A stretch of 64,000 bases of DNA from a virus (lineage: Duplodnaviria > Caudoviricetes): the IMG/VR virus record IMGVR_UViG_3300031992_000007, positions 160,001 to 224,000 of that record, one strand, 5' to 3'. Of this stretch, positions 12,437 through 35,278 are shown in pieces. The notes under the pieces are model-generated. The model worked only from the letters and a program-made list of their open reading frames with translations. It made no database searches and was not told where the DNA came from. Each line of letters opens with the position of its first letter. Position 1 is the stretch's first letter. A program made the translations under genes and the position numbers.

Positions 12437-14461
12437 TTAGATAACCCTCGAGAAACCGAACAAGACATCATAATACCCATAGCCTGACCCAATACAATCC
12501 AAAGTTGGCAATGGATCCCTCATGAAGTCTTTGATGCCCTGGAATGCCAACTTGGTTGACAGAGCAGCATCGGAGATCACGTCAGACAGTCCATTGAACT
12601 TGACTGGAGTCTTGAGATCGGTCAAGATAGGAACGCCAACCTCTCCTTCATTGGGAGCCAAGAAGCAACGCAGCAGAACTTCGATAGCGAAGATGCTTAC
12701 GTCGGACTTGGTGTAAACCAATTCAGAGAAGTCACGCAGACATGCGGCGATGTTGGTGTAGGTACGGATGCCACCTTTGTCGGCCCCCATCAGGAACTTC
12801 TCAACTCGATTCACATAGCTCACCATATCGTCATTGGTAGACGTATAGAGGAACATCGGAAGATCGAAGTCGAAGTCGTCCATCGGGATGTCGATATAGT
12901 CGGCATCTGCAGCTATTTCCTTGTAGTGTTTCCTGAGGTATTCCATCGCATACATCGAGAAATACGGGAAGGTTGTCCCGTCGTTCATCTCGAGTAGTTC
13001 AATGACCTCGTTCTTGGGACTGACTATAGCGATCCTTGAGATGCGGGAGAAGTTGCTACCAGAAGGAAGAACTGCTCGTGTAAGATCGTTCAGCGGACCT
13101 AGCAGGTTGCTGTTCTCGATCCTGATCTTACATTTCTTAATACCCTTGGCTGCACCCTCCTGCCACATGATCGCGTCACCCGATCTCAGGAAGAACTTCA
13201 TCGTACGATCAGGTAGGTTGAACTCTTTGGAAGAAGTCTTGATCAGATGCTTCGCTGACAGGATCTTCTGAGTAACAGAAGACACCACCAAAGTTGCATA
13301 GTTGACACCTGGATGGATATCGGTTGGAAGATAGGCGCTGAGTTTCTGGTGCATGTAACCGGCACAGTGTTCACAGAACCCATCCTTGTGACGACACCCG
13401 AATACAGTCCACATTTGAACTGGACGTTCTACGAACAAGTCGATGTTGTCCTTGGTGATCTCAATGCTGTCATCCTCTGGATACTGCGGCCATTTCCTCT
13501 GAGCAAGTAGGTGTTTCGTGGTTTCGTCCACTCTCACGAACTTGCCGAGATAGTTGTACTTGTGTCCGTTCGGGATGATCACTTCCAGAGTGACATCGGA
13601 ACCACAGCTTCCTTTGTGCAGCACATGCATCTCTGTAGATGCGAGCTTGACTCGACGAGCGAAGTACTGTGCATCCTGAATAACTGCAGAGTTGAAATAC
13701 TCGGCCTTTTTGGCAGACAATGCCTCGATAGCGAAGTCTTCAGCACTCTTCAGTCCAGACATAGCAGACTCACTGATCGCATGTTTCATCATCTTATCGT
13801 CGATGTCGGAACGAGTGCCGTAGGCGTATAGCATCTGGGGCACCTGGTTTCGATTGAACAGCTTGGTACGCATGAACTTCTTGAGTTGATTATTCTCAAG
13901 TTGATCTCCAGCGATAAGAGCCATCATCTCTTTGGAGTCTCTCGCGAACTGTTGCTCGGCAACTTTGGAACCATGAGATGTGTCGATCTTCCTTGCAAGT
14001 ACTTCCTTGAGAGGAGACTGTGCACATAGTCCGGCAACACTCAGTATATCCAGTGACACCTGATACTGTCTTGTGTAGAAGTCGGCGAACGAAGAGAATC
14101 GATTGATAGCCAACCACACCTGAGCAACTGCTTCCATGTGATCGGGTATTCGATGGAATAGGATCAACTCATTGTAGATGGCGTTGGTGCAACGAGTCAC
14201 AGTGTCCGACGTGAAGCTGTAAGAAGCTTTGCCGGTCTCCTTATCCACAGACCTGTCTAGGAAGAATATACGATCTTTTGTGATCGGGATGTTGAAGTGC
14301 AGATATATTGGCCAGAGCAAGCTGTTCAGAACACATAATTGTGTAGGCAGCTTAGCGTGGCCATCGGCCAGCTGAATATCGACCTCTCCTTTTTCTCCGG
14401 CATACTTCTCAATGAACTTTGGTGACGCCACTTGCTCGGCAGTCATTTTTAGTTGTAGCAT
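12437..14461 (-). CDS. Non-virion RNA polymerase beta' subunit, C-terminal part (phiKZ gp74-like)
   Basis: Bridge-helix-like AQYFARRVKL, Zn-site Cys (SCGS, CRHKDGFCEHCAG) and trigger-loop-like TQKILSAKH; synteny with the beta C-terminal subunit and helicase. Confidence 0.88.
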   Translation of the reverse strand: MLQLKMTAEQVASPKFIEKYAGEKGEVDIQLADGHAKLPTQLCVLNSLLWPIYLHFNIPITKDRIFFLDRSVDKETGKASYSFTSDTVTRCTNAIYNELILFHRIPDHMEAVAQVWLAINRFSSFADFYTRQYQVSLDILSVAGLCAQSPLKEVLARKIDTSHGSKVAEQQFARDSKEMMALIAGDQLENNQLKKFMRTKLFNRNQVPQMLYAYGTRSDIDDKMMKHAISESAMSGLKSAEDFAIEALSAKKAEYFNSAVIQDAQYFARRVKLASTEMHVLHKGSCGSDVTLEVIIPNGHKYNYLGKFVRVDETTKHLLAQRKWPQYPEDDSIEITKDNIDLFVERPVQMWTVFGCRHKDGFCEHCAGYMHQKLSAYLPTDIHPGVNYATLVVSSVTQKILSAKHLIKTSSKEFNLPDRTMKFFLRSGDAIMWQEGAAKGIKKCKIRIENSNLLGPLNDLTRAVLPSGSNFSRISRIAIVSPKNEVIELLEMNDGTTFPYFSMYAMEYLRKHYKEIAADADYIDIPMDDFDFDLPMFLYTSTNDDMVSYVNRVEKFLMGADKGGIRTYTNIAACLRDFSELVYTKSDVSIFAIEVLLRCFLAPNEGEVGVPILTDLKTPVKFNGLSDVISDAALSTKLAFQGIKDFMRDPLPTLDCIGSGYGYYDVLFGFSRVI

Positions 14462-14559: not shown

Positions 14560-16719
14560 CTATGCGTCTTTCGGTGCAACACACGAATACCCAACGACAG
14601 AGCACATGTGATTGAACATGGCGATGTTCTGGTTCATCTTCAGCACCTCTTGAGTGTGCATCGGAATACCCAGGAACTGCGTCGGGTGAGGATCTGTCAA
14701 TAGACTCTTGCCCAGCTTAGAAATGATCTCCGGAGCCGAGCTATGCAAGGCATAGAACCTCGCTAGAGTAAGGTCTCTGATCGACATCGAGAGAATACAT
14801 GTTTCATCCTCGCCGAACTTCATTGGTGTGAGGCCCATGATAGCTTGTGACTTGACATGTTTGCTCTTCGGTTTGATCGGGAGTCGGAACTGCGACACAT
14901 AACCCAACTCGATAGCACTCAGCTGACTGGCAGGGAGTTTGCCCAGCACCATCATGTATTTGCTACCGATATAGGTCTTGGTCTTTGTCACGATAGTCCT
15001 TTTTCCACCTGTTTTTGGATCAGGAACATTGTAGCGCAAGTGCGTCTGACGCACTCCATACTTCTTGGCTATCTCCACCAGCTGTTCTGATGTTTGAGAT
15101 TCGCGGAAGCCATTGATCAGATACAGTCCATCGTTCAGACAGCACTCGGTGAAAGCCATCCTGTCGTTGTCTGTCGGCAGAGACTCACACACGAACTGTG
15201 CATACGCTGGCCGGAAGTCGTGGAAGAACTCGATGATGTAAGCGAACGCTTCTTTCCAATGTTGCCGGAAATCCATATTCGACACCCAGTCTTCCTTACC
15301 TTGATGGTTTTGCCAACCACCCAACCAACGATCTTTGACGGTCCTGATCACCATAACTCCAGCTCTGTTCCAGAACGCCTCCAACCACTGGGAAGGATTC
15401 ATTCGGTTAATGACTGAAGCAGGTGTCATGATGATATCAGCACGAACTCCGTCTTCATCTACAGGCATATCGGCTGCAGGACGGATTTCACTGACAACTC
15501 CTTTGCCTCCACTCCTATCGGTCAATTTCGAACCGAGTGTTAGCTTCCTCTTGTACGCATAGGTTATGATCACCACCATGAACTCAACTGGTTCACGAGC
15601 GTCGAAGAGTTGACCTGGTTTCTTGATGTACTCTTTGCTTCCGCTGAGCATGGCAGAACGAACAACCTGAGTATGGAACTCAGGAGAACACGGAAGACCT
15701 TCGCCATCCTTGGAGCACAACTGTTTATATGCCTGCAGGATAGTCTTCTCCTGATAACGGTGCTGATCCCGTATCTCGAAGAATTGTTTGTACTTTGTCG
15801 TGTCCTGGTTCTTAAGTCTCTTCTCAGCATCAGGACTGATGTACACATCCACGTCGACGATCTCAGCTCCAGCTGGAGCACGATGAACTTCGTCATGAAA
15901 GTGCTCGATGTTCCTAAGGTTGCTTGGAGAAGCATCTGTGTGGATGGTGCTCCTGTTCACAGACCTTAAAGCCAGTAATGCCCCATCCCAACGAACTTGT
16001 TCACCTATACCTGGGAAGCACTTATACTCTCCCTCATTACCATAAAGGTTGAGAGGTTGAGCATCATAGTCGATCGTGAGCTTGACTTGCTGAATGGCCG
16101 TGCTCTCACACTTCTTGGCAAACTCATCGCTCACCACGAAAGCGTCTTCAGTTGTACCCCAGTCACCGAGCCATACGACATTGGCGTTTACGCCAGCCAT
16201 GTATCGATTCCCCTTGTGAGAAGGAGATGTGGTAAGCTTGGTTCCTTTCGGGATCAAACTACCTTCGTACATCATGTCGTTATTGAACGCTAGCATCTGG
16301 TTCATGTAGCCGTAACCGTCATGAACCATCGTGTACCGACTCACATCGCAACAATGAACTTGTCGATCGTCTGCTCCAACATAGAGAACTTTCCAGCTTG
16401 GAATATACTTGGCTATCTCGGTGTAGTGAATCGGATCGAACTTGGGAATGATCCTTCGAATAAGACTGTCCTGAGAGATACGGCACGTGCTGAACTCATA
16501 CTTACCGAAGAGTTTCTCGTAACCAGTCATGATGCGAGGTTGCTCAGGGGTAGATAAGTTCATTCTTTGCGTGAAGTGAGACGCTGACATCATGAGCCTC
16601 TGACAGCTTGCATGTTGAATGAATGGGTTCAACAGTGTAGTGCCAGATATATACTCCGGCCGACAGATTAGGTCGGACGAGAGTGTATTCTGCATGAATT
16701 GCTTTACTGGTTTTGTCAT
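14560..16719 (-). CDS. Non-virion RNA polymerase beta subunit, C-terminal part (phiKZ gp71-73-like), uninterrupted
   Basis: RpoB motifs TEDAFVVS, GSKLTDRSGGKGVVS, DMPVDEDGVRADIIMTPASVINRMN and KFGEDE. Confidence 0.93.
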   Translation of the reverse strand: MTKPVKQFMQNTLSSDLICRPEYISGTTLLNPFIQHASCQRLMMSASHFTQRMNLSTPEQPRIMTGYEKLFGKYEFSTCRISQDSLIRRIIPKFDPIHYTEIAKYIPSWKVLYVGADDRQVHCCDVSRYTMVHDGYGYMNQMLAFNNDMMYEGSLIPKGTKLTTSPSHKGNRYMAGVNANVVWLGDWGTTEDAFVVSDEFAKKCESTAIQQVKLTIDYDAQPLNLYGNEGEYKCFPGIGEQVRWDGALLALRSVNRSTIHTDASPSNLRNIEHFHDEVHRAPAGAEIVDVDVYISPDAEKRLKNQDTTKYKQFFEIRDQHRYQEKTILQAYKQLCSKDGEGLPCSPEFHTQVVRSAMLSGSKEYIKKPGQLFDAREPVEFMVVIITYAYKRKLTLGSKLTDRSGGKGVVSEIRPAADMPVDEDGVRADIIMTPASVINRMNPSQWLEAFWNRAGVMVIRTVKDRWLGGWQNHQGKEDWVSNMDFRQHWKEAFAYIIEFFHDFRPAYAQFVCESLPTDNDRMAFTECCLNDGLYLINGFRESQTSEQLVEIAKKYGVRQTHLRYNVPDPKTGGKRTIVTKTKTYIGSKYMMVLGKLPASQLSAIELGYVSQFRLPIKPKSKHVKSQAIMGLTPMKFGEDETCILSMSIRDLTLARFYALHSSAPEIISKLGKSLLTDPHPTQFLGIPMHTQEVLKMNQNIAMFNHMCSVVGYSCVAPKDA

Positions 16720-17481
16720 TTACTTAACTCCTCTCGCGGTTTTAAGTGCTTTGAACTCTACTTCAGCTTCAGCTATTTTGGCTTTGACTGCCTCAATCTG
16801 CTCGGCTGGAGCATTGGTAGAAATCAAACGTTCTAGTGTCTTACGACCATTTAGGGCTCTCATGTAAGCCTTACGTTCTTCCCGATGCTGTTTAAGATAG
16901 ACCGCATTCCTTTGTTTGCGTTCTTCTTTATGGGATTCTTCATACCTCTTTAATGTAGACTGGACTTTTGACTTGTTCTGTACGTAGTATTCCTTTTGAC
17001 GAGCAGAAATTTCTTCTTTGTGTTCCTCACGGTATTCTCTGTCTTTAGCCAGGCATTGTTCACGGTGAGTCGCGTAGTACTTACGAGAGTGTGTAGCATG
17101 TGCTTCTTTGTGTTCTTGTCTGTACTCCGCTTGACGGATGCGGACATTCGGGTCTACCTTGCGACGTTGACGTTCACGTGCATTTATTTGGTCACGGTGT
17201 GTCCTACCGTATTCCGCAGCAAGTGCACGAGCCTTTATAACATCAGGATCTGTCGAATCTACAGGGTCTATACCCATGAGTTTCATCGACTTATGAAGCT
17301 TAACGTGATCTGACACGCTCATTAATATCAAATTATCCGGATCGTTATTGTGACCATTACCATCGATGTGATGGATCACATATCCCTTAGGAATTTTCAT
17401 CCCATGAGTTCGTTCCCACACAACACGATGTTCGCGGACGATATTCCCATCGTCATCTATAGTCTGATCATATCGAGCCAT
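16720..17481 (-). CDS. Free-standing HNH homing endonuclease
   Basis: HRVVWERTHG...VIHHIDGNGHNNDPDNL..SDHVKLH (HNH_3 type), then charged helical repeats. Start revised to ATG 17481 (AAGGAG). More AT-rich than its neighbours. Confidence 0.85.
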   Translation of the reverse strand: MARYDQTIDDDGNIVREHRVVWERTHGMKIPKGYVIHHIDGNGHNNDPDNLILMSVSDHVKLHKSMKLMGIDPVDSTDPDVIKARALAAEYGRTHRDQINARERQRRKVDPNVRIRQAEYRQEHKEAHATHSRKYYATHREQCLAKDREYREEHKEEISARQKEYYVQNKSKVQSTLKRYEESHKEERKQRNAVYLKQHREERKAYMRALNGRKTLERLISTNAPAEQIEAVKAKIAEAEVEFKALKTARGVK

Positions 17482-17560
17482 ATTACCATCTCCTTGAAAT
17501 GTAAAATGTAATAGGACGGCCAGAGCACATTGTATGCAAGGTTTCCTAGTTACCATAAAG

Positions 17561-17568
17561 GTAATATA
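17561..17568 (-). promoter_or_regulatory. phiKZ-type early promoter TATATTAC
   Basis: Exact match upstream of the HNH/nvRNAP beta genes. Confidence 0.7.
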
Positions 17569-17595: not shown

Positions 17596-17961
17596 ATGGA
17601 AGAGAACCAGAGACTGTCTGAACGTATGCACAGTGCGTTTCCGCTCTATGGACCTGGAGATCCACTGTGGGATCAATTTGTCCGAGATCACAAAGAGTGG
17701 CTGAAGAAACAATGCATTCTCAAAAAGTTCAAACCAGAGGAACTCCTTCAGTATCGGTTTCTACCAGCTGAGTTCTTCGTTAGCCAAGAGGGGCAGTTCC
17801 CTGCCACTTGGATTTTCATGTTGGTTAATGGCATTGCCTCACCTATGGAGTTTAACGAAAGTAGAACTCAGTGGTATATCCCGCCACCGGAGATTATAGC
17901 TGAGCTGTACAGCCAGTATGTCTCCTGTACAAGGTCGACTGACATGGAAGACGTTGTTTGA
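17596..17961 (+). CDS. Small phiKZ-like protein, possibly baseplate wedge/LysM-like (121 aa)
   Basis: RBS present; motif Y.F.P..F.......W....VNGI.SPMEF.......IP resembles wedge-type proteins. Confidence 0.55.
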   Translation: MEENQRLSERMHSAFPLYGPGDPLWDQFVRDHKEWLKKQCILKKFKPEELLQYRFLPAEFFVSQEGQFPATWIFMLVNGIASPMEFNESRTQWYIPPPEIIAELYSQYVSCTRSTDMEDVV

Positions 17962-18491: not shown

Positions 18492-19439
18492 TTACCAGCA
18501 GGCTAGAGGATCAGGACAGGTGTGTCCAGACATACCATTCACGATTGTACCGCCACCAAGAATCATACTTCCATTCCAGTTAAGGTTACCTTCACGAAGT
18601 ATAGACGGTGCTGTTAGAGAATGAGTCACAGTCTCTTCAGTTATACTAGCTCCCATCACTTTAGAGTAAGTGGTTCCATCTATGGTCTGTGTTGGAGCTG
18701 AGCGACTGTAGGAAGTCCCTGCTTTAACCACGATGTTTTTACCTGCTTCCATGGTTATCGTATCTCGACAGTTGATGAAGATATTTTCCTTATCAAGGAT
18801 CACATTACTGTCATCAACGTTGTGCAAGTGCCATTTATGCTCACAAGTCCACAGATGCAAGAAATTACCTTTGCAGTCGTGGAAGACCATCTCACCTTTT
18901 TCTGGCCAGATGTACCAGTCGTATCCAACTCGTTCTCCGTCTGCTTTGGATGTGTGAAGATGAACTTGTTTAGAACCTTTGTTGGTATTGATATCAAGGA
19001 AGTACGAGTTCGTGTCCATTACCTCTTTGTAGGATTCTGGAACAACTGAACTCGGCTGAGCCATTGCGAACCAACGAATGCGCTCGTGTAGACGCAAGCT
19101 TGGGTCTCTTCCAAGTGGTAGCCAGTACATCTGTTCGTTACCCGCGTAGTTCAGGACGCGCACACGTTCACCTTTGTGTATGCAAGGGACAATAGAGTTA
19201 GGCTGACCGAGATAAGTGCAAGTAACAGTTCTCTTGATATGAATCATGTGACACCCACCAGGGCACTGCCACATAAACGGAACACCGACCTTTTGATCTA
19301 TGACCTTGCCTGGACATCCTTGAATGTCCGGAATGAACTCCGGAATGTAGACGTCGATGTTCAATGTTTCGCCGTCGGTAATAGTAGTGTTAGATGTTCC
19401 AACCCACTCTGCCCACGGTGATGATACTGGTACTTCCAT
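18492..19439 (-). CDS. Baseplate central spike / tail-tip protein, phiKZ gp164-like
   Basis: OB-fold-like N-terminus (PCIHKGERVRV...YWLPLGRDPSLRLHE), HLHTSKADGE, and a C-terminal run of short beta-strand repeats. Start revised to 19439 (GGAGG). Confidence 0.7.
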   Translation of the reverse strand: MEVPVSSPWAEWVGTSNTTITDGETLNIDVYIPEFIPDIQGCPGKVIDQKVGVPFMWQCPGGCHMIHIKRTVTCTYLGQPNSIVPCIHKGERVRVLNYAGNEQMYWLPLGRDPSLRLHERIRWFAMAQPSSVVPESYKEVMDTNSYFLDINTNKGSKQVHLHTSKADGERVGYDWYIWPEKGEMVFHDCKGNFLHLWTCEHKWHLHNVDDSNVILDKENIFINCRDTITMEAGKNIVVKAGTSYSRSAPTQTIDGTTYSKVMGASITEETVTHSLTAPSILREGNLNWNGSMILGGGTIVNGMSGHTCPDPLACW

Positions 19440-19449
19440 AGTTACCTCC

Positions 19450-19496
19450 AAAAAATAAAACCCAGGGACTGAGCCGTTGTGGCTCGGTCTCCTGGG
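19450..19496 (-). terminator. Rho-independent terminator
   Basis: cccagggactgagcc / ggctcggtctcctggg stem followed by a T-tract on the minus strand. Confidence 0.7.
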
Positions 19497-19521: not shown

Positions 19522-20646
19522 TTAGAACGACAGGGAACTCAATGGGTTACCCCATCCAACGGTTCCTCCTGCAGCCCGTAGTCCCCGCATCATCGCAGGA
19601 ACAGCACGAGGGTTGGGAAGAGATGCGCTGAACTTGGAACCCGACATCGAGAAGCGAGTCCGAGCAACACCCTCCATCATCTTGCTGGAGAGAGGAGCTG
19701 GAGCAGACGATGTGCCTGCGGCTGAGAACCTGGACGCAGTCATGACTCCCTTGTCACCGAACGGAGATTCGGACCTGACCGTAGCCGTAGCCACAGTACC
19801 AGAAACACCTTTCTCCTTGATCGGCGAGGAAGAACTGGATGCGTACCACTGCATCGCCTTGTGATAAGCCGCAAGACGACCAGCATGTTCATCGAGCTCC
19901 GCAACCTTCAACTGAACTCCCGTCAACGCCTCATACTTCGACGCGATCCTCTTCAACACGTCCAGAAGAACGTGGAAGATTGCATCCATACGAGGGCATC
20001 CGATCAGAGTCGCTTCATAATAGATTTGCGTCGGTTTGTCAGTCTCGAGCAAATACTTCATGATGTCCCTGATCAGACGGATGGAACTCAGTCTGAGTTT
20101 ACCCTTCATCTTGGTCTCGAACTCTTCTGTGAATACAGAAGATTGCAACTGGGCTGTGTGCTTCTCCCTCTTGTAGAAGATGAAGCCGATCTCAGAACCA
20201 CGAAGCTCGTGATTGTTCAGCTCCTTGACGAACGTCTTGTCCATCCTCTCGATGAACTCGGACATGATGTCCGCTGACTTGAACGACGCGTCCTTCTCTG
20301 TGTTGATGGCATAGTCAGCCATCGACTTCATTGCCTGACGAAGGAGGCAACCAGGAAGAACCTGGAGGAACCCGAAGAACCAATCTTTCTCCGGGTAATA
20401 GCCAACGACCTCTGTGAACGGGTTGACTGCAACCACATCGGGATTGGTCTTCTGGTTTTGTTTGTAAAGACCTATCGCCTTGTTAACTGCATTCTTCCCT
20501 CCGTGTGTACGAACACCGACGAACTCATCGGTGGCTTTGTCTATAACGCGGTTCTCGCTGTCGATGTAGAACACATCGCCTATCTCGATGAGCGTCTTGA
20601 GGAACTCATAGACGTTGTCCGCGTTGAACGTAACTTCTGTTCCCAT
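19522..20646 (-). CDS. Chimalliviridae core protein, phiKZ gp70-like (374 aa)
   Basis: Immediately downstream of picA; size and position match; low-complexity Ser/Gly tail. Confidence 0.6.
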   Translation of the reverse strand: MGTEVTFNADNVYEFLKTLIEIGDVFYIDSENRVIDKATDEFVGVRTHGGKNAVNKAIGLYKQNQKTNPDVVAVNPFTEVVGYYPEKDWFFGFLQVLPGCLLRQAMKSMADYAINTEKDASFKSADIMSEFIERMDKTFVKELNNHELRGSEIGFIFYKREKHTAQLQSSVFTEEFETKMKGKLRLSSIRLIRDIMKYLLETDKPTQIYYEATLIGCPRMDAIFHVLLDVLKRIASKYEALTGVQLKVAELDEHAGRLAAYHKAMQWYASSSSSPIKEKGVSGTVATATVRSESPFGDKGVMTASRFSAAGTSSAPAPLSSKMMEGVARTRFSMSGSKFSASLPNPRAVPAMMRGLRAAGGTVGWGNPLSSLSF

Positions 20647-20664: not shown

Positions 20665-22305
20665 TTAGAATGAGAGATCTCCTGCACCGTAGTTGGGAGC
20701 ACTTGCATCAGCAGGTTGTTCTGCGTGCGAGTAGTCTTGAACTTCAGGCGCAGCCTGGTCGATGTCGAATGCTGGATTACCGAGTGCACCGAACTGAGTC
20801 TTGCCTTGGGTGAGCAAGAGCAACTGGCTCAACACATGTCCATTGCCTCTGAATGTGGCAAGATTACCGACACTGGTTGTGGTCACAGCACCCATTCGCA
20901 TAGGCGACTCGATCCACGCATCGGCGGACAGGTTGGTATTCATGTCGAAGTCATCCAGCTGAAGGTTGACTAGACACTCGCCAGTGTTGGAATACCTCAC
21001 AGCAACTGTAAAGTCTCCAACTACAGGAACGATGAACATCGCCACGTTCTTTTCGAACATCATCTTGAACATTTCGACCGCACTCACCAGAGTCTTCTTG
21101 AGCAGCTCAGGATCATTGGGAGGTGACACCAGATAAGTATCTTCAGGTGCGACCTGGAAGGTACTCGGCATCGACTCTTCGAAGGAGGACTTCATTGGAT
21201 CATTTGAAGTATACATGAACGATATGGACGATAGTCCTGTATCCATCGCAAGACCTATGATTGAACTCCCAATGAACGACGAGTACGCGACCTTGGGATT
21301 CTCCAAGTTCTGCGGCACTACTTCGTATTGTGCAGTCGGACTGACTCTCTGAACTTTTATCTTGAGACCGTTGTTATACATCCGATCGAGTTCGCCGATG
21401 GATATCAACTTGGTGACATCGATACCGTTTGTCTGTGGACGGCATCCCATCGAGAGCTGTGACATCTTGTTCGTGAACCCGGTCTTGTATTGGTCGAGAT
21501 CGTCTGCAGGCGACAACGTATCCAGACTGCTGAGCCCGTCTGGAGAGAACTCAGAAGCTTTCGCTTCCTTGTTCTGAGTATCAAGACCCTTGAGGATCTT
21601 GCTCATGTGAACACCTGGAGTCTTGAGTGCAACCGGAACAGGATTTCTGTTCATTGCAGCGATGGCACACTGTTGCTCCTGGGACATTGCAATATCACCA
21701 TCGTCGAAGTACTCGAGAACAGTGAACGGTGTAGTCAAGAACAACTGTTGATTGTTTGAACCGAGTTCTATCGACGGATCGATGATATCCTCGGCTGCCA
21801 TGATCCTCTGCTTTTGATACATTCCACCCGCACCTGCCTGCAGGTTAGACCTCATCAACTGACGGCTGTGAACCAGCAGCTGACAATTCTCGTTGATCGA
21901 ACCCATCGGTCCAACGGGCTCGTCGAGACACTGACCCGTCATGATCGTGGTAATAAAACCCGACGACTGAATAGCCAAACTCTTGTAGTTGTTCGGCTGT
22001 CTGATGAACAAGAGGAACGTCCACATCGTCGATGCAACATCCATGCTCAGGTTCACACCTTGGGGATGAGGCCGGATACATCCAGCCACTTCCTCTTTAC
22101 TTGCGATATCCTGTCGCTTGAAAGCGTCGGACATAACTCCTTCGCCAGCACCAAGTAATGTGTCAACAGCCTCATTCGTGAACTGATACACATACGGCCT
22201 CATGACCTGATCTCCGTAGATCCTCGGGGTGTAGAGAAACAGAATAGCTATTGGCTTATTCGGATTCTCCGCACCAGGGATAAACGGATTCATGTTATCC
22301 ATCAT
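20665..22305 (-). CDS. picA: Phage-nucleus protein import factor PicA/Imp1 (phiKZ gp69-like)
   Basis: Position between gp68-like and gp70-like genes; N-terminal YGDQVMRPY, WTFLL and IMTG...GSINENC motifs match my recollection of the gp69 family. Confidence 0.7.
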   Translation of the reverse strand: MMDNMNPFIPGAENPNKPIAILFLYTPRIYGDQVMRPYVYQFTNEAVDTLLGAGEGVMSDAFKRQDIASKEEVAGCIRPHPQGVNLSMDVASTMWTFLLFIRQPNNYKSLAIQSSGFITTIMTGQCLDEPVGPMGSINENCQLLVHSRQLMRSNLQAGAGGMYQKQRIMAAEDIIDPSIELGSNNQQLFLTTPFTVLEYFDDGDIAMSQEQQCAIAAMNRNPVPVALKTPGVHMSKILKGLDTQNKEAKASEFSPDGLSSLDTLSPADDLDQYKTGFTNKMSQLSMGCRPQTNGIDVTKLISIGELDRMYNNGLKIKVQRVSPTAQYEVVPQNLENPKVAYSSFIGSSIIGLAMDTGLSSISFMYTSNDPMKSSFEESMPSTFQVAPEDTYLVSPPNDPELLKKTLVSAVEMFKMMFEKNVAMFIVPVVGDFTVAVRYSNTGECLVNLQLDDFDMNTNLSADAWIESPMRMGAVTTTSVGNLATFRGNGHVLSQLLLLTQGKTQFGALGNPAFDIDQAAPEVQDYSHAEQPADASAPNYGAGDLSF

Positions 22306-22329
22306 CTTTCTAACCTCCTGAAGTTTGTT

Positions 22330-23577
22330 TTAACTCAAAGTGAACAGCGGAACCTGGTAGTCTCTGATCAATGAACGTGAACACAATGCGTGTACCGACA
22401 AGTCAACGTAGTAACGTTTGCACTTATCGTTCGCATACCTAAAGGTAATATATACTTCTTCCGCCCACGAGCGCGCTACGTGTACAGAAACTACGTTCTG
22501 CAACTTGAGCTCTCGGATTTGGTGGATGACTTTCTTTACCACGGTATCTTCCGCCTGAGTGTGGTCAGCACCAAGCGTACGACTTTGGATGTTCATGTCA
22601 AACGGATTATACCTACGGAAATAACCCGGTTGTACTGAGCTTACTGCAAGTTCGAATTCACCATAGGGTATTGCTTCGATGTACTCAATTATCGAGAACA
22701 CATCGCGGTCATCATTTCTCTCGACATTGATCTCCGTGTCACTTGGAAGTGGCTCCATCATGAATCCACGCTGGAAACAGTGAAGACCAAAACTAGGACT
22801 AATGAGATACATGATCTCTTTCAGAAGAACTGGACCCCACAGTAACAGTTTGAGAACTGCACATGTCGAGAGAGGTGAAGTATCAGTCCACTTTTCGGGA
22901 AGCTCAGCACCTCTAAGAACATCTATTGGGTCAGGTCTGTACCAATCATCTTCGAACGCGTAAATGTCCGACAGTGCTCTTATGTTCGCACCGATCGTCA
23001 GGTAAAGATCCTGTCCGTTCACCTCAGGTTTGAACTCACTTATTCTGACGATGTCATCTCTGGATGGATAGTTGACGAGCAGCTTGACTATTTCTGGACT
23101 CGGATAGAACATCAAGTTATTGAACGCTCCAAGTTCATCTGCGATGGCAGCTTCGATTGGAACGTCCTTTGTCTCATCTATCTCGAACCTCATGAGAGCT
23201 CGTACATTTTCCCACAGGATGTACTTTCTTCGTTTGTACGTTTTGGGGTCGGTTACTGCAACCCACAGACAGTAGAGTAAAGTCTTCTTCGATTTCCCAA
23301 TGTGCAATACATCAATGGGTGACTCGGATAGACAGAAGTACTCCACTATTCCGTGGATTGTATTCTCGATCAGCTTGAACCTGAACCAAGTATCGACACC
23401 TGTCGGAACATCCGTCTCGGCACCGAACTCAATGAACATGTCATCAGAGGGCGATTCGAACCCGTATACCCTTTGAATGTTGGATATAGGAGGACAACAG
23501 GATACCTCTGACGATACCTCGGCCGTTCGTTTGAACTGTTTGAGCCTTCTTGGTAGAAGGACTATATCGTCGATCAT
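22330..23577 (-). CDS. Hypothetical protein, paralog of 23587-24780, possible divergent PicA paralog
   Basis: Shares GVxxWFx(F/Y)KL and V.V.RS..E(E/D)V.IT...Y.DL.....S..LI with its neighbour. Confidence 0.6.
   Translation of the reverse strand: MIDDIVLLPRRLKQFKRTAEVSSEVSCCPPISNIQRVYGFESPSDDMFIEFGAETDVPTGVDTWFRFKLIENTIHGIVEYFCLSESPIDVLHIGKSKKTLLYCLWVAVTDPKTYKRRKYILWENVRALMRFEIDETKDVPIEAAIADELGAFNNLMFYPSPEIVKLLVNYPSRDDIVRISEFKPEVNGQDLYLTIGANIRALSDIYAFEDDWYRPDPIDVLRGAELPEKWTDTSPLSTCAVLKLLLWGPVLLKEIMYLISPSFGLHCFQRGFMMEPLPSDTEINVERNDDRDVFSIIEYIEAIPYGEFELAVSSVQPGYFRRYNPFDMNIQSRTLGADHTQAEDTVVKKVIHQIRELKLQNVVSVHVARSWAEEVYITFRYANDKCKRYYVDLSVHALCSRSLIRDYQVPLFTLS
22445..22452 (-). promoter_or_regulatory. 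Early promoter TATATTAC upstream of picA (inside the preceding gene)
   Basis: Exact match 140 nt upstream of the picA start. Confidence 0.55.
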
Positions 23578-23586
23578 GTTTTCTCC

Positions 23587-24780
23587 TTAAAGGTAAGTAC
23601 GATCAATCAGACCATGACTTGAAGCCATGATCCACCAGACGAGGTCGATATATCCATACACATCTCCCGTTTCGAGATCAGTGATAGACACATCTTCCAT
23701 ACAAGATCTATGGACTCGTACCTTTTTACCATTGCCTAGACCTATGCACTTCAGGTAGAGATGCAGAAGATCTTTAGCTACTGGCGAAACGCTCGGCATC
23801 GACTTGTTGAACTGGGTGTCAGTGTATACATGTGTCACGTATGTGTCAGGGATAGTTGGATGAGGGTCGTTCATGTCAACGTCGAAGTAGAAGTCATCGT
23901 ACTGCTGCAAGAACATCGCGATCATCTTACCCATGAAGTATGTATTAGTTGGATGAATGCATAACGCATACGACGAAACAACTTTGTTACAAACCTCATC
24001 CCAGTTCTTCATCGAAGCTACGACCGCATTCCGCACGTTGTCGGTCTTGTCCAAAAACTCGTTTATGTACGGCTGAATTTCTCCCCAGGATACTGCATGC
24101 GCTACTTTAAGAAATGTATCAGGATAAACCGCAATGTTGTTGATAGTAGCGAACTTATTTACAAGTGCCGCAAGTTTGACATTGTTCTCCATGTCGCGGA
24201 TGCGACCACTAACCATGTTGTTCATCTGCTCTAGACTGTAGTCCACATCAGCTGGAGAGAACCCACTCTTAGCCAACTCTATACCTTCAGTTAAGAACAC
24301 ATCCGGTGGAGGGTGACCTGTATTGAGAGTGTAGTTTTCAGACAGGAAGTCCAGAGGGGAGATAATTTCTCCTGCTGCGTAGAAGTCATTAGTCCTCAAA
24401 AGTCTTTCGATACTCTTGGTGAACAGGACTGTCATGCCACAGCAGTGTCCGTAGATCGGATAGATTACATTGGAGTAGTGGGTATCGTAGTTATCGAGAT
24501 TGATCTCTGTGCTCGAAACGATGACGATCTCCGACTCGCTCATGCATGCATTTGGATCGCTCAGGAACATCTTTGCTTGATCCTTGAGATCGTTGAACGT
24601 ATCTTGCATGACGAGTTTGTATTTGAACCATCGCCTTACACCCAGACTGAACTCTCTACCGACAGAGTATGAAGCCGCACCGGAATCAAAACCATCGATA
24701 GGATCTATTCCTAACAACTGATCGGTGTTGTCCAGGAAAGCCTGGGTGAAGTTAGGTAGAGGGATCACTGCTGTTATCAT
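23587..24780 (-). CDS. Hypothetical protein, possible divergent PicA paralog
   Basis: Start revised to 24780 (AAGGAG). Several short motifs are collinear with PicA (see findings). Confidence 0.6.
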   Translation of the reverse strand: MITAVIPLPNFTQAFLDNTDQLLGIDPIDGFDSGAASYSVGREFSLGVRRWFKYKLVMQDTFNDLKDQAKMFLSDPNACMSESEIVIVSSTEINLDNYDTHYSNVIYPIYGHCCGMTVLFTKSIERLLRTNDFYAAGEIISPLDFLSENYTLNTGHPPPDVFLTEGIELAKSGFSPADVDYSLEQMNNMVSGRIRDMENNVKLAALVNKFATINNIAVYPDTFLKVAHAVSWGEIQPYINEFLDKTDNVRNAVVASMKNWDEVCNKVVSSYALCIHPTNTYFMGKMIAMFLQQYDDFYFDVDMNDPHPTIPDTYVTHVYTDTQFNKSMPSVSPVAKDLLHLYLKCIGLGNGKKVRVHRSCMEDVSITDLETGDVYGYIDLVWWIMASSHGLIDRTYL

Positions 24781-24809
24781 ATTCCTCTCCTTATGGAAAT
24801 AAAGGTTAA

Positions 24810-24839
24810 CCTCCACGACTCTCTAAGGAGTCGTGGAGG
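24810..24839 (-). terminator. Terminator-like hairpin after the sigma-like subunit
   Basis: cctccacgactc / gagtcgtggagg perfect 12-bp stem. Confidence 0.6.
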
Positions 24840-24844
24840 GTAGA

Positions 24845-26527
24845 TCAGAATGCTTCTGAATCGAATACGCTGACCAACTTGCACGCATCCTCAGTGATTT
24901 CCACTGTTGGGATGATCTCCTCGCCATTGTGGATGAACGAACCGATGGGCTCGGTACTTCCAGGAGGAGTGAGCTCAAGAATGTAGTCCGGCACGTTAGC
25001 CGTATACTTGACAGTCGCAAGGTCGTTGATGAGTTCCTCCATCTGCATATCCCAGGCACGCTCACGCACGCTCTTGGTAACATCCAGATAGATATCTCCG
25101 CTATCACCAGTTGCGAATCTGGAACGACAGTCGATGTAGTTCGGCCTGGTAGGAGCCATGCGCTTGAACAGATCTTCATTCTTACCGAGCGTCAGTCGGA
25201 CGTTATTGGTCTTCGTTGCAGTCAGTGCCACCATGAGAGGATACATACCCATACTCAAGGCAATTAGCTGCAACATCACGATCAATTGGGTATACGCCTT
25301 GGTGTCGATGATGTCGATACCACGACCTCCACCCATAGCCCGTCCGAACACAACCGTAGCCACATACCTGTTGAGAGGTGTCTGATAGCACGGATGCCCG
25401 TTCAGGAAGTAGTTCAAACAAGCATCGAACTCGTCCTTGGTGATGTCGTACATGACACGATAGTCGTCGATGATCGAGTTGATCGAATCCTCGATGATCA
25501 GTTCCGTATCGACCGTACCATCACTTACAAGAGAGTCGATCTCGATCTGAGCCATCTTACCGCCATCATCTCCGGATAGCATGGAACCAGGGGCATTCCT
25601 CAGTTTGACCTGGGCTTGCTTGGCTTTGGAGTCCTGAGTCTGGACAAGGGTTCTTGTCATCGTGTCGGTATACCGGATGATATTCGACTCTGGCTGTTCG
25701 AGGTTGCAAAGTACGAAGTTCCTAACCATCAACGAAGACATGATCGCTGCGACACGAGTGCTTGGAGTGTGACCAGCGAATACCGGAGCAACATTGTTCT
25801 CCGTGTTCTTGTCACACATACCCTTGACGATGTGTCCGATATAGAACTCGAGCCTACCTATCAGTGCAGGGAAATAGTTCGCCTGGATGGTAGACAGGAA
25901 CCACGAACACCTGGATTCCCTCTGGCGCGGATGCTTGCGAGACCTGTCGCGATCTCCAGCCGGAAGGTTGTTGATCAGCTCGCCGAAGATCGGCGTCGCC
26001 AGTTTGCAGAACATAGCCAGAACCATGGTCTGCCTGATTTCAGGTTCTTTGAATGTCAATTCAGGAGTATCCTGAGGACGGTCTCCGAACGTAGACGTAT
26101 CCTGAAGCTGAATGGTTGAAGCATACTCAGAGAACAGGTCATAAAGCTTGACCTTGTTACACATGTCGTAATACTGCTTACCGAGTTCCTCTACGCACTG
26201 GATGAACACCATAGGTGCCCGCATCTCAGGAACTTCAGCCATCTTCTTCGGCAACGACTCTCTGATGGTGTAGCAAGCACTGCCGAAATACTTGGCTACT
26301 TCGATCTTGTTCTCAGGACTGAGCTTGTTGAGAGCCCAGTTGGTGATCTTGAAGATGTACTCGAAACCTTCGGTCTTCTTACCAGGTTCGTACACCTGGA
26401 TGCTGTTGAACATCGAGCAGTTGAAGATGAGGTAGGGTTTGAGAACCTCTTTGTGCTCGAAGTCAATGTCATCTATGTTAAGTTGAACTTTGTTGCTGCC
26501 GTTAACTGCGACGCATTCGAACTTCAT
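24845..26527 (-). CDS. Non-virion RNA polymerase sigma-like subunit (phiKZ gp68-like)
   Basis: 560 aa, helical, directly downstream of ChmC; motif TFKEPEIRQTMVLAMFCKLATPIFGELI; core-block synteny. Confidence 0.7.
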   Translation of the reverse strand: MKFECVAVNGSNKVQLNIDDIDFEHKEVLKPYLIFNCSMFNSIQVYEPGKKTEGFEYIFKITNWALNKLSPENKIEVAKYFGSACYTIRESLPKKMAEVPEMRAPMVFIQCVEELGKQYYDMCNKVKLYDLFSEYASTIQLQDTSTFGDRPQDTPELTFKEPEIRQTMVLAMFCKLATPIFGELINNLPAGDRDRSRKHPRQRESRCSWFLSTIQANYFPALIGRLEFYIGHIVKGMCDKNTENNVAPVFAGHTPSTRVAAIMSSLMVRNFVLCNLEQPESNIIRYTDTMTRTLVQTQDSKAKQAQVKLRNAPGSMLSGDDGGKMAQIEIDSLVSDGTVDTELIIEDSINSIIDDYRVMYDITKDEFDACLNYFLNGHPCYQTPLNRYVATVVFGRAMGGGRGIDIIDTKAYTQLIVMLQLIALSMGMYPLMVALTATKTNNVRLTLGKNEDLFKRMAPTRPNYIDCRSRFATGDSGDIYLDVTKSVRERAWDMQMEELINDLATVKYTANVPDYILELTPPGSTEPIGSFIHNGEEIIPTVEITEDACKLVSVFDSEAF

Positions 26528-26582: not shown

Positions 26583-26590
26583 GTAATATA
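26583..26590 (-). promoter_or_regulatory. Early promoter TATATTAC
   Basis: Exact match in the intergenic region upstream of the gp68-like gene. Confidence 0.7.
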
Positions 26591-26675: not shown

Positions 26676-27332
26676 TTAGAACGGGAGATCGTCAGGATTC
26701 GATGCGAATTCGTTTGTGGGCTGCGGGGGCGGAGGATTGCCACCTCCACCGTTCCTGGGCTGGTAACCTCCTGTGGGACGATTACCCCCACGCTGGAAGT
26801 TGCCACGACCACCGCGCTGTGCATTCGGATCGTACGGCTTGATGGTAGCGATGTACCACCTCTGCACCTGGGTGAACCAGTCAATAAGATCCTGAAGCAT
26901 GTCGGCTGAGCAGTCTGCTTCACTCATCGGGTCAGAACCGATCTGGACGGACTGAGAACCGTTTAGAGCGAACGTGAACGTCCTGCCACCATTGCTTGCA
27001 TCCGTGAGATGAATGCGATAGCACATCTTGGCGTCCTTCTCGAGAACGAGTACCCAGACAAGCTTCCTCTGCTTCGACTGCATGTCGAACGTGGTGAACT
27101 TGCAAGGGAGCTTAGTCTCAGGCGGGCAGGTGAGAAGCTTCTCAGCCATCTTCTTGATCTTGCGGAACAGAGAGGCGCGATCAAGCTTCTTCAAAAACAA
27201 CGGCGGCGCATTCTTGTCACCACCACGACCACGAACACGGACGTAGACTTTGCCGTCGTACAATCCGAGGATGAGTGTCTGACCAGCCTGGCGATCCATC
27301 ACCGCCCAGTCAGGGAACCTTATGTCGAGCAT
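26676..27332 (-). CDS. chmC: ChmC-like nucleic-acid-binding protein (phiKZ gp67-like)
   Basis: Alpha/beta core plus a disordered RGG/Gly/Asn-rich tail ending DDLPF; immediately upstream of the gp68-like gene. Confidence 0.7.
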   Translation of the reverse strand: MLDIRFPDWAVMDRQAGQTLILGLYDGKVYVRVRGRGGDKNAPPLFLKKLDRASLFRKIKKMAEKLLTCPPETKLPCKFTTFDMQSKQRKLVWVLVLEKDAKMCYRIHLTDASNGGRTFTFALNGSQSVQIGSDPMSEADCSADMLQDLIDWFTQVQRWYIATIKPYDPNAQRGGRGNFQRGGNRPTGGYQPRNGGGGNPPPPQPTNEFASNPDDLPF

Positions 27333-27347
27333 GTTATTTCTCCTTTG

Positions 27348-28199
27348 TTAATCAAGTGAATAAGGAAGAGGGAATGAATTTCTACGGATCTTCTCCGTCA
27401 CGAAATTATTCGTGTGCATTATCATCCTTTCGGATTTGCACAAATCCATAAACCGTTTCTTGTCCTGTTTCTCAAGAACACCTTTGACGAGGTACTTGTC
27501 TCCAAGTAGAACGTGGGTTATTGGATAGAATGGGACGTCAGTGTTTTTGAATACTACTGGCGCTAGAGAAGACGGTTCAAGTTTGACTTTAGCTCCAGTA
27601 TGACTTCTGAAGAGGAACCCTGGTCTACCTGTGCCAGTGCAGCTATGATAGTCCATGGGCATGTGAGAAAGAAGCAGAAGAGGAACGTCCTTCTGGACGA
27701 GCTTCTCAACCACATCCCTTATTCCTTTATAAGAAGGAACTCGCATCTGAGGAGCCATCCTCACATGAGCCTCAACATTCCCTTCTTTCTGGTCACCAAC
27801 AGAGAGTGACCTGAGTAGAAGTCTGAGTGCGTTGTTAGTCACAATTGCCGAGGCGCTATTAGACACCCTTCTGAAGTTGCTGCTAACAGCCTTCGAGTTG
27901 TCCACATAGTAGAAAAGGATGTGATGCTTGTTCTGCGCCCACCTTTGTCCACAGATGTAGGCAATCTCGTTGGCTATGAGAGACATCGTCTTCTTAACCT
28001 CAGCTACAGCATCCTCAGGTTTGACGTGAGTTGTATCTGCAGCGTTCCGAACAAGAGTCTCGATGTTGATAGCAAGCATGACCACATAGTTCGAAGGAGC
28101 TTCGTTTAGATAACCGATGATCGCATCAAGAGCCTCAGTTGTGCCGTAACCAGCACGCCCTTTTTCGGCCTTGTCCTCTGGTTTCATAGGTTCTGCCAT
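27348..28199 (-). CDS. phiKZ gp66-like protein (PIN/5'-nuclease-like)
   Basis: GYGTTEAL, LAINIETLVRN, LLSHMPMD, SHTG and VPFYPITHVLLGD motifs; start revised to 28199 (AGGAGG). Confidence 0.6.
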   Translation of the reverse strand: MAEPMKPEDKAEKGRAGYGTTEALDAIIGYLNEAPSNYVVMLAINIETLVRNAADTTHVKPEDAVAEVKKTMSLIANEIAYICGQRWAQNKHHILFYYVDNSKAVSSNFRRVSNSASAIVTNNALRLLLRSLSVGDQKEGNVEAHVRMAPQMRVPSYKGIRDVVEKLVQKDVPLLLLSHMPMDYHSCTGTGRPGFLFRSHTGAKVKLEPSSLAPVVFKNTDVPFYPITHVLLGDKYLVKGVLEKQDKKRFMDLCKSERMIMHTNNFVTEKIRRNSFPLPYSLD

Positions 28200-28209
28200 A
28201 GATAACCTC

Positions 28210-29331
28210 CTACTTGGTTTCTGCAACTGTCGAAATTACAGTGTGAAGATCTGCTGGACTGATTTTGTGAGACCTTCTCTCTATTATCGGCATCAATAGT
28301 GTTTCGATATTCCCTGGTGTAATGACAGGTAATTCTTCTAGACACGTGTTGACGTTCTCGAGTATCTGGTCTCGTTTAACAGTCTTAGCAGCATCAACTA
28401 TCGACCACTTCCAGATTTCTCTGGCAGCCGTTCGACAAGCATCGTTGATTGTTTTATCATCTGTCTTAACTCGAACGTGTACCCACTCACCTTCAGCGAA
28501 AGTAGATGCTAGTTTTGTCCACTTCTTACAGAAGAACTGAAGTGCAGCTTCCTTATCCTCACCAAAACCCAGAAGGTCTACCGTGATGAATTTGTTAGCT
28601 TCCTTGTTCTCTATGAAGTTGAACTTGTACTTATCATCATCGATGTCGATCTGGTAGAAACCCTTAGGACCATCTTCATCGTGTGCAAGACGGTCAAAAG
28701 ACCCTATGGAGATAACATTCCTGAAGATGGAAGAACGATGTACGTGTCCATTCAGCACACACCCTTTGATGTACTTCTGGATAATATCCACATCCAGAGC
28801 ATCCTTATCCGGTTTAACTCCAGGTGGGAACATGTGGATGAAATACCCATGATGGACAAGGATATCTGCCTTCTCGACATTGTGAGCCTTAAGCAGTTCA
28901 GCTATATCAGCATATATGTCTTTAGAACCATGGTCGTCCGGAATGTACACGATGTTCAGTCCGGACTTCTCATGATACTCGAAGGAGATTTTGTCGAACA
29001 TTTTAACAGATGTGTCGTTCGGATCTTCCCTGTGAACGAAGTGAAGAGGCTGGTCTCTATCGTGGGAATAGGTTCCTCTTAACACTCTGAGGTCACATCC
29101 TACTTTCCGACACAGCATCTTGAGCTCCTTGATGATCATCAACGCTTCTCTAGACGAAGGGTTGCTCAAGTTGATCAGAGTGTCGAAGAAGTCCCCGCAG
29201 ATAAAAAGAATACTGATATCTTTGGTGATCCTTGGATAAACGTACTTAATAAGTCGTTCATGAAGAAGAAAGGGATCGAGTCTCGGACACCCGATGTGGA
29301 CATCCGAGATCGCAAGAACTGATGTGTGCAT
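28210..29331 (-). CDS. sbcD: Mre11/SbcD-like metallophosphoesterase nuclease (phiKZ gp65-like)
   Basis: Motifs SDVHIG, GDFFD, GTYSHD, HHG, NGHVH and GSFDRL. Confidence 0.88.
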   Translation of the reverse strand: MHTSVLAISDVHIGCPRLDPFLLHERLIKYVYPRITKDISILFICGDFFDTLINLSNPSSREALMIIKELKMLCRKVGCDLRVLRGTYSHDRDQPLHFVHREDPNDTSVKMFDKISFEYHEKSGLNIVYIPDDHGSKDIYADIAELLKAHNVEKADILVHHGYFIHMFPPGVKPDKDALDVDIIQKYIKGCVLNGHVHRSSIFRNVISIGSFDRLAHDEDGPKGFYQIDIDDDKYKFNFIENKEANKFITVDLLGFGEDKEAALQFFCKKWTKLASTFAEGEWVHVRVKTDDKTINDACRTAAREIWKWSIVDAAKTVKRDQILENVNTCLEELPVITPGNIETLLMPIIERRSHKISPADLHTVISTVAETK

Positions 29332-35270: not shown

Positions 35271-35278
35271 GTAATATA
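35271..35278 (-). promoter_or_regulatory. Early promoter TATATTAC for chimallin
   Basis: Exact match about 110 nt upstream of the chmA start. Confidence 0.72.

Follow-up and report, generated by a model that had tools for sequence, protein, structure and literature searches.

What might be the role of two extra genes, each encoding a protein of about 400 amino acids (aa), that stand between the gp68 ortholog and the picA (imp1) ortholog of a jumbo phage? The question is raised by a stretch of 64,000 nucleotides (nt), positions 160,001-224,000 of the IMG/VR record IMGVR_UViG_3300031992_000007, which is referred to here as the window and on which all coordinates are based; the source record comprises 265,480 bp and is rated complete in IMG/VR. 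To our knowledge, no universal selectivity factor other than Imp1/PicA is known for the crossing of the chimallin shell, and its gene is regarded as part of the single-copy core. Its localization in shell puncta, the selective import and its essentiality have been described in phiKZ and Goslar (PMC11087766; 10.1101/2024.03.27.586873). The two extra genes are designated P3 and P2, in the order in which they follow gp68. As the best overall explanation, to which we assign a probability of about 0.5, we propose that they form an inserted, imp1-derived pair acting as accessory import factors.

The gp68-picA junction and its distribution

The picA/imp1 ortholog (20665-22305, 546 aa), P2 (22330-23577, 415 aa), and P3 (23587-24780, 397 aa) are three consecutive genes on the minus strand, in agreement with the initial annotation, which had placed two extra genes of ~400 aa in the slot between gp68 and picA. 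They directly follow the gp68 ortholog (24845-26527, minus strand), which encodes the fifth subunit of the non-virion RNA polymerase (nvRNAP), a protein of 560 aa that matches PHROG 3209 (E 5e-8) and was also recognized by hhalign (98.6%, E 9e-16, 435 columns). The extra pair is missing from the twelve cultured chimalliviruses examined, and the arrangement described as normal, with picA directly after gp68 and nothing between them, was found in phiKZ, PhiPA3, FLC9, RSL2, BONAISHI, RAY, MadMel, Yaphecito, Proteus phage 10, SPLA10, and pVa-21. The start of P3 likewise stands as first given, at the ATG at 24780 with AAGGAGAGG as the Shine-Dalgarno sequence, and an identical 397-aa product is on record; an alternative upstream GTG at 24816 falls in the stem of a hairpin (see below). 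P3 and P2 are separated by 9 nt in the window, while the stop and start codons overlap in two related contigs, L003 and L017.

As judged from profile comparison and gene order, the 546-aa protein is a genuine PicA/Imp1 (gp69) ortholog. PHROG 3141, which phiKZ gp69 matches at E 3e-179, also matches the 546-aa protein collinearly (E 6e-4). Furthermore, when this protein and 14 metagenomic relatives were compared with ten cultured gp69 homologs, hhalign returned 96.8% (E 2.5e-10, 421 columns), and 97.1% (E 6.7e-11, 413 columns) with two more relatives added, while the gp68 and gp70 profiles used as negative controls gave E > 0.3. Profiles were required for this recognition, as BLASTP of the 546-aa protein against phiKZ gp69, gp68, and gp70 yielded nothing significant. 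The gene is situated between the gp68 and gp70 homologs and upstream of the nvRNAP beta and beta' genes, with two genes intercalated after gp68, and a hidden Markov model (HMM) scan of 877 open reading frames (ORFs) identified it as the sole copy in the 265-kb genome.

The gene order gp68-like, P3-like, P2-like, Imp1-like, gp70-like is present in six related contigs (L002, L003, L004, L017, L026, and L028) as well as in two gene tables without DNA, and a ninth related contig (a gene table only, 2.5 kb) carries the insertion and is too short to show the order. The Imp1 ortholog of the most distant related contig is only 26% identical to that of the window. Because the order is kept over such a divergence of Imp1, the P3-P2 pair is, in terms of synteny, an old and fixed feature of a broad uncultivated lineage. 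We also considered whether P3 and P2 are not real genes at all or represent a recent mobile insertion, and both ideas were ruled out, as the two families keep their length and position while the Imp1 orthologs have diverged to this extent.

Megablast and tblastn searches with the region and the three proteins found no relative among 50,697 phage records, and the nvRNAP beta subunit shares at most 29% identity with any phage record, so that there is no close cultured relative. As far as sequence searches reach, the lineage is one with no cultured member among the 50,697 phage records searched. P2 and P3 had no match in Pfam, PHROG, PADLOC, or the PDB sequences, and an IMG/VR profile search with the P2 alignment gave no confirmed locus. 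Besides, small genes were observed between P3-like and P2-like genes in two contigs, encoding 136 and 100 aa in L026 (7171-7853) and 149 aa with a HAD_SAK_2 match in a contig of 267,822 bp. HNH-type genes lie between gp68 and P3 in the same two contigs, which indicates that the junctions of the block accept insertions.

Paralogy of P2 and P3 and their probable relation to Imp1

BLASTP of P2 against P3 gave collinear hints only, at the N-terminus (E 0.055) and at the C-terminus (E 0.39), and an early hhalign comparison of P3 (six sequences) with P2 was weak (E 0.029). A HMMER search with a P3 profile over 1.84 billion representatives gathered 36 proteins of 164-416 aa, 34 of which fall within 373-416 aa; these are all metagenomic where looked up, and cluster look-ups of ten of them gave no names. 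Since the P2 profile recognizes none of the 36 representatives, P3 constitutes a separate and very diverse family. The deep P3 profile was aligned by hhalign with P2 at 94% over the N-terminal 103 columns and, with three more P2 members, at 96.8% (E 2.2e-10) over 316 columns, that is, almost end to end. In addition, a P3-only HMM searched against the 877 genome ORFs found P2 as its single other significant match (E 4e-6), in two collinear stretches. Going by these alignments, P2 and P3 are true paralogs of each other, as had been proposed in the initial annotation, and the P2/P3 motif pairs that it listed are located inside the hhalign alignments of the two. In every comparison P3 has diverged more than any other gene of the block, with 19-35% identity to its counterparts where the neighbours keep 26-81%; in L003, for example, P3 retains 35% identity to the window, compared with 81% for gp68, 60% for P2, 67% for Imp1, and 71% for gp70. 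The divergence rate of P2 is about equal to that of Imp1 in the same contigs.

A relation of the pair to Imp1 is not evident at the sequence level. The five motif pairs that had been thought to tie P3 to PicA turned out not to rise above chance (BLASTP best E 1.1, profile-profile E >= 0.35), and pairwise BLASTP of the 546-aa protein with P2 or P3 detected nothing significant. When the P2 family was compared with the Imp1 families by hhalign, the best E was 0.1-0.23, over 49-51 C-terminal columns only, which is not significant. This C-terminal alignment recurs against two target profiles, in which VSVHVARSWAEEVYITF of P2 is aligned with FTVAVRYSNTGECLVNL of the window Imp1 and with FKISMHSDLAGDTVIDI of phiKZ gp69. 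The last of the five motif pairs coincides with this best local, itself non-significant, alignment of the P2 family with Imp1, while the other four have no statistical support. A merged P2+P3 profile, compared locally and globally with the Imp1, gp68, gp70, and ChmA profiles, gave nothing.

It is the predicted structure of P2 that points to Imp1. The AlphaFold model of P2 is confident, with a predicted local distance difference test (pLDDT) score of 80.7 and a predicted template modelling (pTM) score of 0.81. Its only significant structural neighbours in BFVD, as searched by Foldseek, are ~500-aa chimallivirus proteins, namely 16 Imp1 homologs (E 1.5e-9 to 5.7e-5, probability 0.99-1.0, template modelling (TM) score 0.43-0.51) with alignments of ~480-540 columns; two of these neighbours, those of Moabite/Yaphecito and MadMel, were verified as Imp1 homologs. 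No significant neighbour of the P2 model was found among PDB structures. The P3 model is poor (pLDDT 43) and was built before the deep P3 alignment existed. The order of its secondary structure elements parallels that of P2, and 13 of the same 16 Imp1 homologs were among its top 50 BFVD hits, at non-significant E values of 0.016 to 1, which is a hint only. The PicA-like folds anticipated by the initial annotation are hence predicted for P2, with Imp1 homologs as the only significant neighbours, and the P3 model is too poor to decide on the other protein.

Four BFVD entries with neighbouring accessions (A0A6G5XY76, A0A6G5XX02, A0A6G5XYG0, and A0A6G5XYJ8; 357-382 aa) were matched by both models, at E 1.4e-5 to 0.1 with the P2 model and at E 2.7e-4 to 0.9 with the P3 model, and these could all be P2/P3-like and come from a single deposited genome.

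Given the predicted structures and the adjacency of the genes, we consider it fairly likely that P2 and P3 are diverged Imp1-fold paralogs. An expansion of the Imp1 family in this lineage is probable. The 'triplication' that had been suggested does not comprise three similar copies, as the paralogs are strongly diverged, shorter, and tail-less; an old expansion followed by strong divergence describes it best.

Transcription signals, C-terminal tails and the surrounding block

The octamer TATATTAC, the predicted promoter motif of phiKZ (PMC7058600, Table 2), was observed five times in the window, where 0.74 copies are expected, and four of the copies are on the coding strand. These four minus-strand copies stand before a shell-protein candidate (35271-35278), ~55 nt upstream of the gp68-like gene (26583-26590; the same arrangement is seen in L002, L003, and L028), in the 3' end of P2 ~140 nt upstream of the picA ATG (22445-22452), and before the HNH and nvRNAP beta genes (17561-17568); P3 and P2 have no such octamer of their own. 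The copy embedded in P2 is in frame, covering codons Tyr376-Ile377-Thr378. In all seven loci with DNA (the window, L002, L003, L004, L017, L026, and L028) it is kept in frame as TAT ATT ACN, which encodes an invariant Tyr-Ile-Thr, and the P2 stop follows 108-129 nt later, while the codons just upstream of the octamer vary synonymously. The chance of identical codons under coding alone is ~1/6 per independent lineage if synonymous codons are assumed to be used equally. Because the same synonymous choice in seven diverged lineages is unlikely by coding alone, the embedded octamer appears to act both as codons and as a promoter for picA. It may be that the Tyr-Ile-Thr invariance in the P2 family is imposed by the picA promoter rather than by the protein, and an embedded promoter over three invariant in-frame codons would illustrate dual coding particularly clearly.

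Between the gp68 stop and P3 there is a terminator-like hairpin (24810-24839, minus strand) with a perfect stem of 12 bp and a loop of 6 nt (dG, the folding free energy, -23.5 kcal/mol; z -5.0), which is followed by a T-rich tract (24795-24809). Equally strong stems of different sequence, again followed by a U-rich tract, occupy the same place in L002, L003, L004, L017, and L028. The initial annotation had assigned picA an early promoter of its own and had placed the paralogs behind a hairpin; this was corroborated, both elements being conserved in related contigs. An early promoter would drive gp68, behind which stands the strong hairpin, P3 and P2 are tightly coupled to each other, and the second TATATTAC, inside the end of P2, would re-initiate transcription for picA. 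From this separate wiring we infer that the production of P3 and P2 should differ from that of Imp1 in amount or in timing.

Another difference between the pair and its neighbours concerns the C-terminus. P2 ends with ...VPLFTLS and P3 with ...GLIDRTYL, each right after the last predicted helix, and neither has a disordered tail. Disordered tails that close in hydrophobic-x-Phe are found in Imp1 (GDLSF), in the gp70-like protein (SSLSF), in the gp67-like protein (DDLPF), and in the 536-aa shell-protein candidate (GGFAF). In a comparison of the window with L002, L003, L017, L026, and L028, the termini of Imp1 and of the gp70-like protein were observed to covary (LSF/LSF in the window and in L003, LRM/LRM in L017), and the gp67-like proteins of the related contigs retain DDLPF or a close variant.

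The minus-strand block running from 29331 to 10153 corresponds gene for gene to the phiKZ gp65-gp75 block, plus the two extra genes. It begins with an SbcD-like gene (28210-29331; PHROG 100, E 8e-33) and a gp66-like gene (27348-28226; PHROG 3229), followed by a gene of the gp67/Imp6/ChmC family (26676-27332; PHROG 3284, the phiKZ gp67 family, E 1.6e-8), whose product of 218 aa carries the DDLPF terminus on a Gly-rich C-terminal tail. Downstream of picA, the gp70-slot gene (19522-20646) encodes 374 aa with a Ser/Ala/Gly-rich tail and was assigned by synteny and by hhalign against the gp70 family (73%, E 3e-5, 221 columns). Two genes stand between the gp70-slot gene and a small gene on the opposite strand (17596-17961; PHROG 3455). 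A 319-aa gene (18492-19451) that matches PHROG 3216, 'baseplate assembly protein' (E 5e-30), sits within this early nucleus/polymerase block, and its slot holds a gene of 310-398 aa in related contigs. An HNH endonuclease gene (16720-17556; 15 PHROG HNH families, best E 1.5e-18) precedes the genes for nvRNAP beta (14560-16719) and beta' (12437-14461), which are followed by a helicase gene; all of these are again on the minus strand. This HNH gene is free-standing, and the nvRNAP beta gene whose start it adjoins is unsplit. In L003 (14769-18479) and L017 (15067-17200), the beta gene region contains HNH_3 or NUMOD1 genes and is apparently split.

Core genes of the Chimalliviridae are present in phiKZ order, namely the split nvRNAP subunits and the gp65-, gp66-, gp67-, gp68-, and gp69-like genes. 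By synteny, the shell-protein candidate is a 536-aa protein with disordered N- and C-terminal ends (33552-35162, minus strand), the gene of which lies directly upstream of a gp55-like polymerase gene (31829-33463). ChmA is in the same position in phiKZ, PhiPA3, Noxifer, DT01, Desertfox, Eowyn, and Goslar.

A proposed accessory role in import, competing readings and known systems

In the explanation that we favour, a large and uncultivated chimallivirus-like jumbo phage lineage would have inserted P3 and then P2 at the conserved gp68-picA junction of the early block. As P2 and P3 are paralogous and the predicted fold of P2 is that of Imp1/PicA, the pair most likely represents ancient, strongly diverged imp1 duplicates that would have lost ~130-150 residues, including the disordered C-terminal tail. 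Their products would serve as accessory import factors alongside the single tailed Imp1, either as extra subunits or as cargo-selective adaptors, and specificity would reside in P3, the very rapidly evolving member of the pair. We infer the common descent from imp1, the import role, and the expression pattern alike. More tentatively, the lineage might possess a three-member Imp1 family, in which a tailed, shell-docked core importer works with two tail-less paralogs that set the cargo specificity, P3 tracks lineage-specific cargos or host defences, and the embedded promoter uncouples the dosage.

Several points weigh against this explanation. No sequence-level link connects P2 or P3 to Imp1, the best profile-profile E being 0.1, and the fold link of P2 consists of one predicted model compared with predicted models. 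The TM score of ~0.5 and a root-mean-square deviation of ~10 A mean that the domain arrangement differs or that only parts superpose, and the P3 model is poor. Sequence searches of the complete 265-kb genome with PHROG 4795, phiKZ gp54, a 7-sequence ChmA HMM, and the PDB found no chimallin, so nucleus formation by this phage would have to be deduced from the other core genes. Moreover, P2 and P3 adjoin the gene of an RNA polymerase subunit, and by position alone a role in transcription would fit just as well.

In another reading, which we take seriously while considering it rather improbable, P2 and P3 are imp1-derived, or share its fold, and have been recruited to a different job at or near the shell or the polymerase, with no part in selecting or carrying cargo. 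Assembly or chaperoning of the gp68-containing nvRNAP, mRNA export together with the gp67/ChmC-like protein, and regulation of Imp1 are examples of such jobs. The location of the pair directly after gp68, set off from picA by the promoter of the latter, would fit, as would the lack of the C-terminal tail common to the presumed shell-associated proteins and a divergence from Imp1 beyond sequence recognition, as expected after a change of function. However, no feature indicates a specific other activity, with no match in the databases named above, and the importer family is the only significant structural neighbour. The same neighbourhood argues against the idea that the likeness of P2 to Imp1 is an analogy, or a partial, domain-level match of the model, and that P2 and P3 are an unrelated lineage-specific pair, such as a module for host takeover or counter-defence, whose insertion at this junction was fortuitous. 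The 16 Imp1 homologs head the list with near-maximal probability over ~480-540 columns rather than over one domain, no other BFVD or PDB family comes near, and the family matched is the very one to which the neighbouring gene belongs; moreover, the pair occupies one fixed site in the relatives, even where Imp1 is down to 26% identical, unlike mobile accessory genes. We regard such an analogy as unlikely.

Still less probable, in our view, is a single heteromeric pore or translocon in the shell for which Imp1, P2, and P3 would all be obligatory subunits. It would be in keeping with the translational coupling of P3 and P2, visible in their short gap or overlap, and with the fact that all three genes always occur together in related contigs. 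Equal stoichiometry is nevertheless at odds with the promoter that picA has of its own and with the hairpin before P3 and P2; besides, the pair lacks the tail of the other shell-block proteins, and a single Imp1 serves for import in cultured chimalliviruses (PMC11087766). A complex prediction for P2 and P3 scored 0.00, which is no evidence for or against their association.

If the pair does act as accessory import factors, three diverged forms of the importer fold would provide natural separation-of-function variants, and a comparison of tailed with tail-less members could separate the parts responsible for docking to the shell from those that read the cargo. Import selectivity could then evolve by duplication, beyond the recruitment of unrelated adaptors. 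In the studies consulted, picA/imp1 is described as a single conserved core gene, with no mention of paralogs or duplication (10.1101/2024.03.27.586873; 10.64898/2026.09.21.753271; PMC11087766). Compared with PicA/Imp1 as known (phiKZ gp69, PhiPA3 gp63, 201phi2-1 gp125; PHROG 3141), the 546-aa protein is alike in slot, length, profile (97%), and upstream early-promoter octamer, and P2 is alike in predicted fold (Foldseek E down to 1.5e-9). P2 and P3 differ in being ~130-150 residues shorter than the 546-aa PicA, in forming families of their own, and in occurring only in the uncultivated lineage.

The proposed expansion would also be a viral parallel to that of nuclear transport receptors in eukaryotes, where one receptor fold of the karyopherin/importin-beta type gave rise to paralogs with different cargo sets. 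This is an analogy only, as there is no structural or evolutionary relation to the karyopherins and the phage shell is a protein lattice. A closer comparison is offered by phiKZ, in which Imp1 is a multi-interface hub helped by the lineage-specific adaptors Imp2, Imp4, Imp5, and Imp7 (10.1101/2024.03.27.586873; 10.64898/2026.09.21.753271). These adaptors (Imp2 gp47, Imp4 gp48, Imp5 gp287, and Imp7 gp166) are accessory factors of a sub-lineage that act with the universal Imp1 on particular cargos, and the role suggested for P2 and P3 would be similar; the likeness is one of role, and no homology is claimed. The phiKZ adaptors are scattered in the genome and are presented as uncharacterised, with no stated link to Imp1 (10.1101/2024.03.27.586873; 10.64898/2026.09.21.753271), whereas P2 and P3 lie beside imp1 and are associated with an Imp1-like predicted fold.

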